Shown: piece after piece, positions 9,142 through 22,679 of the stretch
Layout: each line of letters begins with the position of its first letter
Position numbering within the stretch: position 1 is the first letter of the stretch
Assembly (NCBI GenBank): GCA_017469445.1
Contig: JAFUGK010000015.1
Coordinates: 75,964-139,963 of the forward strand
Source: Clostridia bacterium
GTDB taxonomy: Bacteria; Bacillota; Clostridia; TANB77; CAG-508
DNA length: 64,000 bases
Direction: 5' to 3'
Translations under genes and position numbers: made by a program
Notes under the pieces: generated by a model
Told to the model about the DNA's origin: nothing
Seen by the model: the letters and a program-made list of their open reading frames with translations, nothing else
Databases searched by the model: none

Positions 9142-9777
9142 TCAAGGGTTTTGTTTTATTATTCTTTCAACTTTTTCTTTTAAAAAATATCTTTTATTCT
9201 CTTTTATAACTAAGGCCCATAAATACATAAGCATAAATAATATTGCTATATTTTTAAAATAGTAAATTGCTATGCTTCCTGCAAATGTTAATATTATTGC
9301 ACCTATATTAGCAATTTTGTTTGTAACATCTTCTGAAATTTTTCTTCCCTTCATTATATATAATGCGCTTCTTACTATTCTTCCACCATCTAATGGAAAT
9401 ATTGGTAGCATATTGAAAGCAATAATTAGTATATTTGCATATATTAATATTTCTTTTGTAAGATTATCTATAGGTAAATTAAATAGTATTACAATCAATA
9501 TTATAATTAAATTTGTTGCCGGGCCTGCTATTGCAATCAACATTTTTTTTAGTTCAAATTCTTTATTTCTACACCCAAATTCTTCAAAAATTATTGCTAG
9601 TCCAAATGGATTTATTTCTAACTTTTTTGGTTTTAACTTTAATAATAAACCAGCTAATAAATGTCCACATTCATGTATAAAAGCAAGTAACATTAATATT
9701 GCATATACATTTATTTGTCTTGTTAAATAAAATATTATGACAAAAATAAAAATTTGAAGACTTATTTTGATTTGCAT
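9142..9777 (-). CDS. M50-family site-2 metalloprotease (SpoIVFB-like)
   Basis: HExxH motif (HECGHLLAG) in a TM helix. RBS aaagggga precedes the MQIKIS start. It lies directly downstream of an M23/LytM gene, the spoIVFA-spoIVFB arrangement. Confidence 0.65.
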   Translation of the reverse strand: MQIKISLQIFIFVIIFYLTRQINVYAILMLLAFIHECGHLLAGLLLKLKPKKLEINPFGLAIIFEEFGCRNKEFELKKMLIAIAGPATNLIIILIVILFNLPIDNLTKEILIYANILIIAFNMLPIFPLDGGRIVRSALYIMKGRKISEDVTNKIANIGAIILTFAGSIAIYYFKNIAILFMLMYLWALVIKENKRYFLKEKVERIIKQNP

Positions 9778-15902: not shown

Positions 15903-17753
15903 TTAAATTTCCATTATTATTGGTAATATCATAGGATTTCTTTTTGTCTTAACAAATACATAATCTCTTAAACTGTCTTTTAAATTAGATTTTATTGTTG
16001 ACCAATCTTTTATTTGCTTTTCTTCGCATTTTCTTATTTCGTCTCTTACTATCTTCTTTATGTCTTCCATTAAGTTTTCAGATTCTCTTACATATACAAA
16101 TCCTCTTGAAATTACATCTGGTCCTGAGACTACTTCTCCTGTACTTGAATCCATTGTTAATACTATAATTATTAATCCATCTTGAGATAGATGTTGTCTA
16201 TCTCTTAGTACAATATTTCCAACATCTCCAACTCCAAGTCCGTCTACAAGTATTCTTCCAAATGGAACTGTACCTGTAAGTTTTGCACTATTTTCATTTA
16301 ATTCTAATATTCTACCATTTGTTAATGCAAATATATTTTCTTTTTCTATTCCCATTTGCATTGCTGTTTCTGAATGTGCCCTTAATTGTCTATATTCACC
16401 ATGTACTGGTAAAAAGTATTTTGGTCTTACTAAAGAAAGTATTAATTTTTGCTCTTCTTGGCACGCATGCCCTGATACGTGAATATCTTCTAATGCGCTA
16501 TATACAACTTCTGCACCAATTTGCATTAAATCGTCTATAACTCTAGATACAAATTTTTCATTTCCAGGTATTGGTGTTGCAGATATTATTACTAAGTCAT
16601 TAGGTGTTATTACAACTTTCTTATGTTCTCCTGCTGCCATTCTTGTAAGTGCAGACATTGTTTCACCTTGACTTCCAGTTGTAATTATTACAAGTTGTTC
16701 ATCTGTGTAATTCTTTATCATATCAATATCTATAAAAACATTGTCTGGAACTTTAATATATCCAAGTTCTCTTGCAGTTTCTATCATGTTTATCATGCTT
16801 CTACCACAAACTGCAATTTTTCTATTATTTTCAACTGCTGCATCCACAATTTGTTGTACTCTGTGTACATTTGAAGCAAATGTTGCCACAACTATTCTCT
16901 TTTTACAATTTAAGAATAATTTATCGAATACTACTCCAACAGAGCTTTCAGACATAGTATATCCTTTTCTTTCAGAATTTGTACTATCTGAAAGTAATGC
17001 TAAAACTCCATTATTTCCTATTTCAGCTATTCTACCTAAATCCATATGCTTTCCATCTATTGGTGTATGGTCAATTTTAAAATCTCCTGTATGAAGTACA
17101 ACTCCAACAGGTGTTGTTATTGCAAGCATAACAGAATCTGGTATACTATGGCAACTTCTTATAAATTCAACTTTGAACTTTCCTAAAGTAATTGTTTGTC
17201 CTTGTAATACTGTATTTATTTTAGTTTTTCGTAACAACTTATGTTCTTCTAATTTATTATTAATAAGTCCTACTGTTAAAGGTGTTGCATATATTGGCAT
17301 ATCTACTTGTTTTAATAAATATGGTATTCCACCAATGTGATCTTCATGACCATGTGTTACAACTAGTCCTCTTATTTTATCTTTATTTTTTTCCAAATAT
17401 GTTATATCTGGTATAACTAAATCAATACCTAACATCTCATCTTCTGGGAAAGCTAATCCACAGTCTACAACAATCATGTCATCTTCATATTCAAAAACTG
17501 TAATATTTTTTCCTATCTCTAATAATCCACCAAGTGGAATTATTTTTAAATTGCTCTTCTTAAATTGTACTTCTTCTTGTTTTTTATTTTTTCTAGTTCC
17601 ATACTCTCTTTTAGGTCTTCTTTCTGTAGGTTTATTATCTATAGTTGTTTTTTCTCTTTTTGTTTGACTTGTCCTTTCTTTAACATTTCTTGTTCTTCTT
17701 GGTTTTGGCATATTTTTTATTGCCAATTTACTGTTTTTTTCTTTATTTTCCAT
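15903..17753 (-). CDS. rnj: Ribonuclease J (MBL/beta-CASP) with about 60-aa Lys/Arg-rich N-terminal extension
   Basis: HGHEDHIGG and a beta-CASP region. Canonical start KIIPLGGLLEIGKN is preceded by MENKEKNSKLAIKNMPKPRRTRNVKERTSQTKREK... RBS agaggaaaggga. Confidence 0.9.
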   Translation of the reverse strand: MENKEKNSKLAIKNMPKPRRTRNVKERTSQTKREKTTIDNKPTERRPKREYGTRKNKKQEEVQFKKSNLKIIPLGGLLEIGKNITVFEYEDDMIVVDCGLAFPEDEMLGIDLVIPDITYLEKNKDKIRGLVVTHGHEDHIGGIPYLLKQVDMPIYATPLTVGLINNKLEEHKLLRKTKINTVLQGQTITLGKFKVEFIRSCHSIPDSVMLAITTPVGVVLHTGDFKIDHTPIDGKHMDLGRIAEIGNNGVLALLSDSTNSERKGYTMSESSVGVVFDKLFLNCKKRIVVATFASNVHRVQQIVDAAVENNRKIAVCGRSMINMIETARELGYIKVPDNVFIDIDMIKNYTDEQLVIITTGSQGETMSALTRMAAGEHKKVVITPNDLVIISATPIPGNEKFVSRVIDDLMQIGAEVVYSALEDIHVSGHACQEEQKLILSLVRPKYFLPVHGEYRQLRAHSETAMQMGIEKENIFALTNGRILELNENSAKLTGTVPFGRILVDGLGVGDVGNIVLRDRQHLSQDGLIIIVLTMDSSTGEVVSGPDVISRGFVYVRESENLMEDIKKIVRDEIRKCEEKQIKDWSTIKSNLKDSLRDYVFVKTKRNPMILPIIMEI

Positions 17754-18102
17754 ATATTCTCCCTTTCCTCTTTAATCATGCACAAAAAATTAGTTTAAAA
17801 TAAATTTAAACTAATGACTCTTTTAAAACTATATTCATATTTCAATTTTTACCGCTCAATTTCAATATTATCATATGTTTATATTTTTATTATTATAAAT
17901 CTATTATTTAAACTATATACATCTCTTATTTAAATAATATTAAATTTTCCGAATCATTACTTTTATTTAAAACTGTATTTTTAATACATTAATCTCATTA
18001 TTTATCCACTATTTGAATATACTGGAAAATATTATACTATTTTTTACTATATTTGTCAATAATTTGAATAAATAAGAGAACAAGGGGCTGTTTCCTTGTT
18101 CT

Positions 18103-19695
18103 CTATAAATCAAACGTCCAAGCATTATTTTCATTTTTCCCTGTTGTGCAAAGACCTTCTTGCAATTCAACTATTGGCATAACATATGCATAAATTGTAT
18201 TATTTGTGCTATTTGATCTTGAACCTGATAAGTACAATTTAGAATTATTTGAAGTATTTCCTATTGGGCCAGATTCTATCCAACCATTTGATATTGCATA
18301 TACCGCATAATTAACCTCTATATTATATAAAACCGTTCCCCTTGTTGATAAGAAATATGGAATTTTATTTTCACTAGTATTACTTGTCTTTTTAAATATC
18401 ATATTATATATTGTGCTATTAGAAAAGTAATTTTTAGCTTCATATCTATACTGTGTTTGTGTAGCAGTAAATGGATTAATTCCTTCATCAACACCTTGTT
18501 CATTAATGAAAGTTCCCTCGCTATATGTTCTTGTATCACCTATTTTTTTATTTTGCCATCCTGTATGCACATAATTGCTAGTATCATAAGTCGAATATTG
18601 TTCAACATCAGCTAAAGTCATACTTCTTCCTTTTTGGGCTCCTGCTCCAGTACCATACAACGCTCCTATACTATCTAATATTGTTGTATAATTAATATAT
18701 CCTGCTTTTCCCCATAAATTTAATGCTGTATTTGAAATTGGTTCTTCGGGAATAATAGTAACTTTTTTGTTATTTTCATCTATACTAAAAACTCTCCATT
18801 TAGTATTTGCAACTGTAGAAAATGTTTGATCTCTTGAATAACCAGAATTTGCTTTTGCAATTGTACAACTACTAGTTACTGGCGTATAATCTACATAGTC
18901 ACCCAATTGGACTTCTGCAGATAAATACAATTTATTTGCTATCCAATTTGCAGTATATGTTTTATCCCCCATACTTCCTTTTTCTATAGTAACATTTACT
19001 TGTGCAGTTTCTCCATTGCTGCCTGTCCATCCACTAAATGTATAACCCGTCTTGGTAGGCGCATCTAATGAAAATGTTTCAGAGGTATCATAATAATAAG
19101 TTGGATTATCTGCTGTACCTCCACCTAAATCATAAGCTATCTGATATTGTATTGGTTCTGGAGTTGGTGTGTCTATATCTGTTTCAATATGTGTTGATCT
19201 AAAATCAAGTACAGGTATACCAATTTGTTTACACCATTCAGTTAATTTGTCATTATTAGTAATATCATCCATTGATACATAATTTAACTCCCCATGGTAT
19301 ATAACAAGATATTTTTCTTCTTGATTATTTAATGTCCCTAATATACTTTCTAAGTCTGCTTTTTCGCCTAATATGTCTGTTTCTGAAATATTAAATCTTT
19401 CAGCATTCTCTTTTACCAATTTTAATAAAGTTGGCCCAACATTTATAGAATTTTTATTAATTCTTGATGTCCTTTCAAAATTTTCAATATTTTTTATTTC
19501 TATTTTTTCTTTAAGCTGTTGTATTCTCGCTTTAAAAATAGATTCTTGTGCATATTTAATAGTACTCTCTTCATTAAATAATGAATTTACTACAAGCCCT
19601 GCTAAAATAAGCATTATTACAATAGTAACTACTAAGGCTATTAATGTAATTCCTCTATTTTTTGTATTGCAAATTTTCATATTGCCACTATTCAA
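18103..19695 (-). CDS. Surface adhesin-like protein: pilin-like N-terminal TM (NRGITLIALVVTIVIMLILAG), Listeria-Bacteroides (Flg_new) repeat, C-type-lectin/DUF1566-like C-terminus
   Basis: Flg_new motif YDLGGGT...GYTFSGWTG...TANW. C-terminal ...YFLSTRGT...YVMPIVEL resembles the DGR targets, but the 3' end does not match the TR. Confidence 0.6.
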   Translation of the reverse strand: MNSGNMKICNTKNRGITLIALVVTIVIMLILAGLVVNSLFNEESTIKYAQESIFKARIQQLKEKIEIKNIENFERTSRINKNSINVGPTLLKLVKENAERFNISETDILGEKADLESILGTLNNQEEKYLVIYHGELNYVSMDDITNNDKLTEWCKQIGIPVLDFRSTHIETDIDTPTPEPIQYQIAYDLGGGTADNPTYYYDTSETFSLDAPTKTGYTFSGWTGSNGETAQVNVTIEKGSMGDKTYTANWIANKLYLSAEVQLGDYVDYTPVTSSCTIAKANSGYSRDQTFSTVANTKWRVFSIDENNKKVTIIPEEPISNTALNLWGKAGYINYTTILDSIGALYGTGAGAQKGRSMTLADVEQYSTYDTSNYVHTGWQNKKIGDTRTYSEGTFINEQGVDEGINPFTATQTQYRYEAKNYFSNSTIYNMIFKKTSNTSENKIPYFLSTRGTVLYNIEVNYAVYAISNGWIESGPIGNTSNNSKLYLSGSRSNSTNNTIYAYVMPIVELQEGLCTTGKNENNAWTFDL

Positions 19696-19796
19696 TCCTA
19701 AGAGCTCCTTCCTTTGTAAATTTATAATAAAATTATATATTACTACTTTTATTTTTTCAATATTAAATTTATTAAATAATTATATTTTTTTATAAA

Positions 19797-19995
19797 ACAA
19801 AAAAAAGCCCCCGCCATAGCCGTTCTGTGAAGAAATTTTAAGGACCTGCTCTCACAGGTGGGTGCCTTCCTCGATATTCCTGGGTTTCTTAAATATTATA
19901 TTTAAGCATACACGCCATATCAAGAGATTTTGGCTCCCTTTTTAAATTTGTTGGTTCTAAAATTTCAGCAATCACGCACTCTGCAGGGAAAATTA
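19797..19995 (-). ncRNA. Candidate structured cis-regulatory RNA / riboswitch-like leader with intrinsic terminator, upstream of 18103..19695
   Basis: A GC-rich island of about 190 nt in AT-rich DNA. It has hairpin ACCTG-tgagag-CAGGT and motif GAGGAAGGCACCC. The minus strand ends GGCGGGGGCTTTTTTTT about 100 nt before the adhesin start. Class not identified. Confidence 0.35.
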
Positions 19996-20350
19996 TTAAC
20001 TTATTTATTTTTTATTATTGTATAAGAAAAATCTACTTTTATCTTGACCACATATAAGATTTTTCTGTATACAAAAAGGTTAATTTACCTATATTCGTGC
20101 AATATTGCGTAGCAATTTGCACATGTGACCATCGAAATCTTTGATTTCGGTAATGGCCAATTTTCTTATACTTATAATACCATATACTATTAGTATATTC
20201 AACTTATTATTTCTTGATTTAATGCTTTTAAATGCAATTAAATGCTATTTTTACTTATTTTTAATAATAATCTTATATAATTTATATGTATTTATTATTG
20301 GACTTTTTATAAATTTTATGCTAAAATGTATATATATTGATTATTTTTAA

Positions 20351-20379
20351 GAGTCGACATAAGTCGACTCTTTTATTTT
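20351..20379. terminator. Terminator hairpin downstream of 20382..22661
   Basis: Perfect palindrome gagtcgac-ataa-gtcgactc followed by ttttatttt. Confidence 0.55.
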
Positions 20380-20381
20380 AG

Positions 20382-22661
20382 CTAAAAGTTCAATAATTCA
20401 TATGCTGTATAATCATTAACAAAATTATCTTTTTTCTCATATTTTTCATTTAAAAAGTTATTCCATTTTTCCTTATCCTTTACTAATGATTCAAATAATT
20501 GATAATCTTTATCACAAACTATTATCAATTTTGGTTTTTCTATAATTACACTTTCTACAAATTCATCTATTATTTCTTTTCTACGTTCTAATGTAAATGA
20601 ATCCCAAAGTGGCAAATAGCTATACTTGGTTGGTGCTAATCTTTTTGTTTTGTAATTAGCACTTACAGCTTCACTTCCACCACCAATTAATTGAACTGTA
20701 TCTTCTGGATTAGAATGTTTCTCTATATAACCCCTAATTGAGTATCTTATATCATCTTCAATTGGTGTTCTTCTGTCTATAATTTGATTCTCTAAAATCC
20801 CATAATTATAAATTCCAATTATTATCATAGCAATTACAACTGCAATTTCTGCTACTCTTCTTATTGATCTATTTCTAATTATACTTATTGCATATATAAT
20901 AATTGCAACTACAATAAAGATTATAGGAATGAATGTTATAAAGTAATGCATTTGAACTGCTCCACTTAATGAGTTTGAATATAAATTAATTAAAATAGCT
21001 AGTATACTTCCTATAATCAAATATTTAATATTCTTTTCTTTTATTTTCTTAAAAATTAAAAGAACTAAACTAACTATTACAAAAACTGCCATAAGAATTC
21101 CTGCATAAGTATCTTTATTAAATATTTCCAGCATATCTTGTACAGCCTTTAGCCTATCTCCTGTATTAAATCCTCCAAGTACTTGCAAATATGCTGTATT
21201 GATACATTCTATTAATGCATTATTCATAAATAAATATATTGCCATTGGTACACATAAGGTCAAAAATCCTATTATACCATATATTATCCACTTTCCAATT
21301 TCTTTAAATCTTCTGTTTATTATTAATCTTATTCCAATTAATAAAAACAACGGTAAAAATATTAATAATATATTTAGTCTTAGCATTGCAAGCGCAGCAC
21401 TGCAAATTCCAAGTAGTATTATTCCACCTTTAGATAATTGTGTATCGTTTAACATCGTTTTTACAAATAAATATATTCCTATCATTAAAAATGGTAGTGC
21501 AAAATTTTCTGATAATGTTCCTCTTTCATTAGTTGGCACCCAAGTACATAATGCATAAAAACATCCTATAACACTTAACAATTTATTTTTAGATAATACT
21601 TTTATTGTTTTGTATCCAAATATTGTTGTTATTAATAGTGATAAATATTCTAAAAAGTATACTCCAAATTCGCCATCAAATTTTAGTCCTATATAGTAAA
21701 TAAAATACAATAGTGGTCCTTTATTATCCCATGCTCCTGTATACATGAATACCCCATTTTGCATAGCATATCCTATATATGAAAATATACCACAATCATG
21801 TAAAATATCTTGATTATTTATTGGTGAATAATTAGTTATCAAACTTAAAAATAATGGTAATGCTACTAAAAATAAACATATTAAACTATTAGCAATTACT
21901 GTTTTAGTATTATAAATCAATTGTAATTTTATTGCTGTTACAATACTTCTTCTCATTGTAGTAAATACTCTCATCTTGCTTGTCCCTTTTTTATTATCAT
22001 ATCGAAGTTCAAAAGGTACTTCATCAAATTTTGCTCCAACTTTATTTACTTTATATAGTAATTCCATCATACATGCAAAACTTTTTTCTTTAACAACTTC
22101 TTGTCCAAATTTATTAATAAGTTTTTCAATAATTTCATAGGTGTAAATTCTATAACCACATGTATAATCCTTTACTCTATCTATATTTAAAACAACTTTA
22201 TAATATATTCCTGCAATATCACTTAATTTTTCCCTATATTTAGCTAATCCTTTTACTGCAGCCCCTTCTTGATATCTTGATGCAATAACACAATCATTTC
22301 CATTTTGTATTTTTTCTATCATGGAATGAATATATTTAGGATTTTGAGTGTTATCTCCATCCATAATTGCAAGTAAATCTCCACTTTGGGCATTATTATG
22401 GAAATAATTAACTGCAGTATTTATTCCTCCGCATAATCCTTTATTCACTTCGTGTTCTACTATCTGTATATTACTATAATTTTTGCATTTTTCTAATACT
22501 ACTTCTCTTGTATTATCAGTACTTGCATCATTTATAACTCTAATTTGTAATTTTAAATTGCCTTGTTCAAGTTTTTCTTCTTGCTTTTCCCATTCTTCTA
22601 TAAGATTTCCTATATTTTCTGCCTCATTATAGCAAGGCAATAACACATATAATGTTTTCAT
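20382..22661 (-). CDS. Bifunctional glycosyltransferase: N-terminal GT2 (DPM1/polyprenyl-phosphate sugar synthase-like) fused to about 500-aa polytopic membrane domain
   Basis: LLPCYNEAENIG...DASTDNT...DGDNTQNP GT2 signature, followed by many TM helices. Confidence 0.7.
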   Translation of the reverse strand: MKTLYVLLPCYNEAENIGNLIEEWEKQEEKLEQGNLKLQIRVINDASTDNTREVVLEKCKNYSNIQIVEHEVNKGLCGGINTAVNYFHNNAQSGDLLAIMDGDNTQNPKYIHSMIEKIQNGNDCVIASRYQEGAAVKGLAKYREKLSDIAGIYYKVVLNIDRVKDYTCGYRIYTYEIIEKLINKFGQEVVKEKSFACMMELLYKVNKVGAKFDEVPFELRYDNKKGTSKMRVFTTMRRSIVTAIKLQLIYNTKTVIANSLICLFLVALPLFLSLITNYSPINNQDILHDCGIFSYIGYAMQNGVFMYTGAWDNKGPLLYFIYYIGLKFDGEFGVYFLEYLSLLITTIFGYKTIKVLSKNKLLSVIGCFYALCTWVPTNERGTLSENFALPFLMIGIYLFVKTMLNDTQLSKGGIILLGICSAALAMLRLNILLIFLPLFLLIGIRLIINRRFKEIGKWIIYGIIGFLTLCVPMAIYLFMNNALIECINTAYLQVLGGFNTGDRLKAVQDMLEIFNKDTYAGILMAVFVIVSLVLLIFKKIKEKNIKYLIIGSILAILINLYSNSLSGAVQMHYFITFIPIIFIVVAIIIYAISIIRNRSIRRVAEIAVVIAMIIIGIYNYGILENQIIDRRTPIEDDIRYSIRGYIEKHSNPEDTVQLIGGGSEAVSANYKTKRLAPTKYSYLPLWDSFTLERRKEIIDEFVESVIIEKPKLIIVCDKDYQLFESLVKDKEKWNNFLNEKYEKKDNFVNDYTAYELLNF

Positions 22662-22679
22662 TAACTATATTCGCCCCTT

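Follow-up and report, generated by a model that had tools for sequence, protein, structure and literature searches.

A textbook 6S RNA gene beside a pilin-like gene and RNase J in an uncultured Clostridia lineage

6S RNA is a small RNA of most bacteria that binds RNA polymerase and dampens its activity. In Escherichia coli, its gene, ssrS, is co-transcribed with the gene downstream. Sequestration of the polymerase by 6S RNA, as well as the refolding and release driven by a short pRNA, has been described (PMC8876501, PMC3299989). In the free 6S-1 RNA of Bacillus subtilis, the 3′ strand of the central bubble forms a small hairpin, whereas the E. coli RNA is unstructured there until a 9-bp hairpin forms after pRNA synthesis (PMC8876501). 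A pRNA initiated with G is the favorable case for a Bacillus-type polymerase (PMC3753640). In B. subtilis, the RNase J orthologue matures and degrades 6S RNAs; pre-6S-1 has an 11-nt leader that is removed by RNase J1, and both 6S RNAs carry a few extra 3′ nucleotides that are trimmed by RNase PH (PMC10578484). For E. coli, work cited in PMC10578484 describes a distal promoter that yields long, processed 6S precursors.

The element considered here lies on the minus strand of a 64-kb stretch of Clostridia DNA (hereafter, the window). It is a GC-rich island of about 190 nt that begins UUUUCCCUGCAG... and ends ...GGCUAUGGCGGGGGC (longer edges, UUUUCCCUGCAGAGUGCG ... ACGGCUAUGGCGGGGGC), followed by eight U (19806..19799); its end, GGCGGGGGC-U8, is located about 100 nt ahead of a pilin-like open reading frame (ORF 18103..19695), as the first-pass annotation had stated; the distance from the end of the U-run to the TTG at 19695 is about 101 nt. 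The GC content is 41.3% for 19804..19992 and 39.7% for 19797..19995, a little below the 45% given in that annotation and well above the mean of the whole window (27.9%) and the values of the adjoining intergenic DNA (10–25%). The internal hairpins noticed at that stage are present as well: the 189-nt RNA has a minimum free energy (MFE) of −53.9 kcal/mol (z = −2.4 versus dinucleotide shuffles, 3 of 200 shuffles being equally good). The element had been read as a terminator-ending leader of the surface-protein gene, either a riboswitch, possibly of the c-di-GMP type, or an sRNA.

An Rfam scan of all 64 kb at the gathering threshold was complemented by a permissive scan (E ≤ 10) of 19600..20450, both strands being searched. 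The 6S/SsrS family (RF00013), one of the models that had been named as candidates, matches 19804..19992 (−) with 86.3 bits (gathering score 46.4, E = 1.2e-15) over model positions 1–187 of 187, i.e., the match is not truncated. The limits of the 189-nt gene are set by the Rfam model, and its true 5′ and 3′ ends may shift by a few nucleotides. SRP RNA, tmRNA, and RNase P had been rightly set aside. Neither c-di-GMP-I (RF01051) nor c-di-GMP-II (RF01786) is matched at the gathering threshold in the whole window or at E ≤ 10 on either strand of 19600..20450, and the same region contains no match to any other riboswitch, leader, or cis-regulatory family at E ≤ 10; the three matches found there besides 6S are at chance level (E above 5), each well under half of its family's gathering score. 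Of the earlier alternatives, the sRNA stands and the riboswitch does not. At the gathering threshold, the window holds two Rfam matches in all, the second being a full-length SAM riboswitch (S-box, RF00162) at 53972..54076 (−), with 74.3 bits against a gathering score of 44.4.

The MFE fold is a single 6S rod: a closing stem is followed by an internal stem, a central bubble with an open 5′ strand and a small hairpin on the 3′ strand, and a long apical stem. Of the 51 pairs of the Rfam consensus structure, 43 are canonical in the threaded window RNA and 8 are not. In both the MFE fold and the Rfam-derived structure, the 5′ strand of the closing stem, CCCUGC (19983..19988, −), pairs with GCGGGGG (19808..19814), and AACAAAUUUAAAAA (19939..19952, −; nt ~41–54), which makes up the 5′ side of the bubble, is single-stranded. 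The conserved CCAACA is found on this side (19949..19954, −). The 3′ side, GGCACCCACCUG (19845..19866, −), overlaps the small hairpin CCUGUGAGAGCAGG predicted in the MFE fold (19845..19858, −). Right behind the closing stem, the U8 run (19799..19806, −) is likely the 3′ end or termination signal of the 6S transcript, and seven T are kept at this position in the closest distinct relative (locus L121). On the minus strand, a simple terminator scan detected no local hairpin terminator at this 3′ end. The G-rich stretch that had been taken for a terminator belongs to the long-range closing helix of 6S, in which it pairs as the 3′ strand with the 5′ end of the RNA; it is not a local terminator stem, and the U-run behind it is the usual one. 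The apical stem also contains a sigma-70-like site, TTGATA-17-TATAAT (19895..19923, −; 11/12); its −10 counterpart in L121 reads TATTAA, so that the site probably arose by chance in the AT-rich apical loop.

For the covariation analysis, homologues were fetched by scanning one genome per species with the 3′-bubble motif GGCACCCACCTGN{2,8}GCAGG. This motif was too loose, giving at least 120 matches, mostly chance occurrences in high-GC genomes, and the window's own species and its near relatives are absent among the matches listed. Even so, each of the 18 low-GC loci scanned with Rfam has a full-length 6S match over the motif (55–125 bits), and 8 further Bacillota-like motif loci were identified as 6S by our own covariance model, which was built from the window RNA and that of L121 on the Rfam-derived structure. 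The model recovers 28 sequences in all (E ≤ 5e-4), and the 26 besides the window and L121 are also called 6S by Rfam. Their sources include Staphylococcus aureus, Fictibacillus, Tepidibacillus, Alkalihalobacillus, Cohnella, Alicyclobacillus, Selenomonas, Phascolarctobacterium, Desulfoscipio, Syntrophomonas, Oscillospiraceae, Ruminococcaceae, and Acholeplasmataceae, among others. The two weakest matches of the model, the antisense strand of the L121 6S gene and a 90-nt stretch in L126, were discarded as spurious.

A plain MAFFT alignment of 20 sequences covered only the conserved helices (23 pairs), and the covariance-model alignment was used instead. Across the 28 Bacillota 6S RNAs, 92.8% of the pair cells are standard, compared with 42–47% when the 3′ partners are slid by 1–3 columns; because the model to which the sequences were aligned stems from the window RNA itself, the pairing counts are somewhat inflated, a point that the slid control answers in part. 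Changes on both sides of a pair occur in 35 of the 43 pairs (196 cells), those of helix 1 and helix 2 included, and none of 500 shuffles reached any of the observed covariation measures. Covariation, which the first-pass annotation had suggested as a check, supports the helices. Neither CCAACA nor the GGGAGCC that comes after it on the 5′ side belonged to the fetching motif, yet both are kept in all or nearly all of the 28 sequences. The 3′ motif GGCACCCACCUG..GCAGG is present in the window RNA and common to all Bacillota 6S RNAs recovered, but having served as the search pattern, it is invariant by ascertainment, and this invariance carries no weight. At the 3′ boundary, 19 of the 28 Bacillota 6S genes have at least six T within an 8-nt window. 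Collectively, these observations indicate that 19804..19992 (−) is almost certainly a gene for 6S RNA (SsrS), probably free-standing and trans-acting, with a probably independent pilin-like gene downstream. It is an already known kind of gene, a textbook 6S that any Rfam-based annotation would call; the fitting label is ssrS (6S RNA), whose product regulates RNA polymerase globally, and the element has no place on lists of candidate riboswitches or adhesin regulators.

Relatives of the locus were sought with the RNase J gene (15903..17753, −) as an anchor. L131, in which RNase J is identical, proved to be the contig of the window itself, and the closest distinct relative is L121, whose RNase J is 91% identical. 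There, an Rfam 6S match of 88 bits is located at 9502..9690, past a radical-SAM gene and directly ahead of the promoter of RNase J. Comparison of the window with L121 by blastn gave four collinear blocks: a DUF5662/radical-SAM block (L121 7451–9271, window 24500–22680; 84% identity), an upstream intergenic block (L121 9302–9491, window 20350–20161; 80%), the 6S block (L121 9485–9694, window 20009–19800; 96%), and RNase J with its leader (L121 9706–11851, window 18060–15903; 87%). The 6S RNA is better conserved than everything around it, namely the coding (84–87%) and the upstream intergenic (80%) sequence, and the few differences within it lie mostly in loops. Three segments are extra in the window: a GT2 glycosyltransferase gene (~20351..22679; 759 aa, PMT_2-like in addition), a piece of about 150 nt upstream of 6S, and the pilin-like segment (18061..19799). 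The GT2 stop is followed by a 10-bp palindromic hairpin (20349..20372) whose tail is T-rich when read on the plus strand but A-rich on the gene's own minus strand; the radical-SAM gene of L121 is followed by a different, canonical terminator. The pilin-like and GT2 genes represent recent insertions or deletions around a conserved 6S–RNase J neighborhood. They bear on strain-level variation of surface structures in this uncultured Clostridia lineage, not on RNA biology.

Ahead of RNase J, a perfect promoter sequence (12/12, TTGACA-17-TATAAT) is present at 18059..18031 (−), and in L121 the matching TTGACA box begins 14 nt past the T-run of 6S. From this promoter to the ATG at 17753, about 280 nt are non-coding (17754..18060, −) and belong to the block that is 87% identical to L121; this long conserved leader might be autoregulatory. 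Among the RNase J relatives checked, 6S is found beside rnj only in L121 and L122 (91% RNase J identity). The next four loci (L123–L126; RNase J 84–87% identical) have no Rfam 6S match within 10 kb, our covariance model detects no 6S in L127–L130, and in a tblastn search of the 26 other Bacillota 6S loci, the pilin-like protein, GT2, and RNase J were all without a homologue. Since the 6S–rnj adjacency was not seen in either set, it is probably coincidental and specific to this small lineage.

The pilin-like gene cassette (18061..19799, −), identified by blastn and Pfam, is missing between 6S and RNase J in L121. It has its own promoter-like site downstream of the 6S U-run (TTGAAA-17-TATAAT, 11/12; 19732..19760, −) and its own terminator with an 11-bp stem (18075..18104, −). 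As this promoter lies between the U-run and the ORF, 6S and the pilin-like gene are probably separate units; the gene would be an independent cassette whose adjacency to 6S is probably an accident of insertion or deletion. The product had been described as pilin-like/Flg_new/CLec-like. Indeed, Flg_new is matched above its cut-off (32.5 bits), whereas the N-terminal methylation motif stays below the Pfam cut-off (19.2 versus 21.2 bits) and no C-type-lectin family is matched at E ≤ 0.001. The putative mature N-terminus is ITLIA, with Ala at +5 where Glu is usual (19620..19695, −), and translation may start at the TTG at 19695, with GGAG 9 nt upstream, or at the ATG at 19680.

Since a local hairpin terminator was not detected, some read-through from 6S into the pilin-like gene is possible. 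A genuine 6S RNA whose transcription continues past the U-run could thus add to pilin-like expression, as a secondary, accidental coupling that arose by the insertion. The helix ahead of the U-run joins distant strands and is no local hairpin, the cassette begins immediately past the U-run, and ssrS of E. coli sets an example of co-transcription with a downstream gene. However, the boundary seen here, U8 right behind a G+C-rich helix of 7 bp, is how Bacillota 6S genes usually end, and the cassette has a near-consensus promoter of its own. Such coupling is unlikely on balance, and two separate transcription units are the preferred reading.

Upstream of 6S, the promoter scan yielded a single good promoter-like site on the right strand, TTGAAT-17-TATTAT with a TG extension (20174..20202, −), which is conserved in L121 and is the best candidate for the 6S promoter. 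In L121, its −10 box ends 23 nt ahead of the 6S boundary, a spacing like that in other Bacillota loci and compatible with a short leader such as that of B. subtilis pre-6S-1. In the window, the distance from promoter to 6S is 152 nt longer, owing to an insert at 20020..20171 (−) that is defined by the alignment gap and the blastn blocks and is absent in L121. Just upstream of the 6S 5′ end, the low-threshold scan gave nothing better than 8/12 matches; among these is a weak alternative, AAGATA-17-TACAAT (20017..20045, −), at the right end of the insert, with a −10 box that ends 24 nt before the 6S boundary. Transcription of 6S would most likely start from the conserved TG-extended promoter (20202..20174) and end at the U8 behind the closing stem. 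A long 5′ leader of about 175 nt containing the insert would then be trimmed; alternatively, the start would be at the weak promoter at the edge of the insert.

At its two edges, the insert has perfect inverted repeats of 11 nt, GTATAAGAAAA and TTTTCTTATAC, and a third repeat-like copy is found inside it (20061..20072). It folds at −43.2 kcal/mol (z = −6.0), as good a value being reached by none of 200 shuffles, and no U-run is found behind its stems. The insert has no match in Rfam at E ≤ 10, no further copy in the window or any of the fetched loci (blastn), and no match among plasmids and phages (blastn); its 20-mers gave 8 matches in metagenome contigs, all of them unrelated beyond a seed of 20–24 nt. 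We see only a slim chance that it is something new, such as a small mobile element of the MITE type or a structured 5′ leader with an effect on how 6S is made or processed, e.g., by RNase J, which is encoded nearby.

The insert also raises the question of whether this 6S copy is decaying or non-functional, having been cut off from its promoter, as the promoter-to-gene distance is abnormal in comparison with L121 and other Bacillota. Yet, the RNA is intact and of full length, its near-identity to the L121 copy exceeds that of the flanking genes, and its substitutions largely spare the helices. Moreover, the insert has no U-run after its stems and provides, at the normal distance from the gene, a weak −10 box as a substitute, and the distal promoter of E. 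coli sets a precedent for 6S made as a long precursor that is then processed (work cited in PMC10578484). Decay is therefore most improbable, and an intact 6S gene is the reading followed below.

The weakest reading, a cis-acting leader (c-di-GMP or other riboswitch, or attenuator) that controls the pilin-like gene through termination at the U-run, agrees with the common strand, the short distance to the ORF, the terminal U-run, and the lack of a canonical hairpin terminator between element and ORF, which makes read-through physically possible, but it deserves next to no credence and is not supported, as 6S is the only significant Rfam match at the locus and no riboswitch family is matched, a promoter-like site separates the U-run from the ORF and a terminator closes the pilin-like unit, L121 retains the RNA at 96% identity without the pilin-like gene, and no homologue of that gene turned up around the 26 other Bacillota 6S loci. 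Of the two points on which the first-pass annotation was to stand or fall, the first went in its favor, in that Rfam gives a match, to 6S, and the second went against it, in the sense that the element is conserved independently of any adhesin gene.

From its family membership, the RNA is expected to act as other 6S RNAs do. The central bubble of the rod would mimic an open promoter, occupy the active site of the sigma-A holoenzyme, and sequester the enzyme, mainly in stationary phase. On nutrient upshift, the polymerase would copy the 5′ strand of the bubble into a short pRNA, upon which the RNA would refold and the enzyme would be released. The predicted pRNA, 5′-GUUGGUUCUAAAAU, would start with G opposite C43 (window 19950), a position placed by alignment with the conserved CCAAC and by analogy to B. 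subtilis 6S-1 (PMC8876501, PMC3753640). We infer the transcript ends, abundance, polymerase binding, and pRNA synthesis of the window 6S RNA from family membership.

Among known systems, the c-di-GMP-I and c-di-GMP-II riboswitches resemble the element only in the position upstream of a surface-protein gene in Clostridia and in the terminal U-run. The window RNA forms a single long rod instead of the GEMM folds, and it is kept independently of the downstream gene. E. coli ssrS belongs to the same family, with the same presumed mechanism of polymerase sequestration and pRNA-driven release, and provides a precedent both for a long processed 5′ precursor and for co-transcription with a downstream gene. 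It differs in that its pRNA starts with A, whereas G is predicted for the window RNA, and in its processing by RNase E/G, whereas the window organism encodes RNase J next door. In the small 3′-bubble hairpin predicted for the free RNA, the window RNA is like B. subtilis 6S-1 and unlike E. coli 6S.

The closest architecture is that of the Bacillota-type RF00013 members, represented by B. subtilis 6S-1 (BsrA). Unlike these, the window RNA has very AT-rich helices (41% GC overall) with the 8 non-canonical consensus pairs, its gene is separated from the promoter by the structured 152-nt insert, and the neighbors are lineage-specific, with radical-SAM and GT2 genes upstream and the pilin-like gene and RNase J downstream. 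Like them, it is about 190 nt long and forms a rod of closing stem, central bubble, and apical stem with a U-rich 3′ boundary; it carries CCAACA...GGGAGCC on the 5′ side of the bubble and GGCACCCACCUG with a small hairpin on the 3′ side; the 5′-bubble C is placed for a G-initiated pRNA; and, in L121, a sigma-A-type promoter is located shortly upstream.
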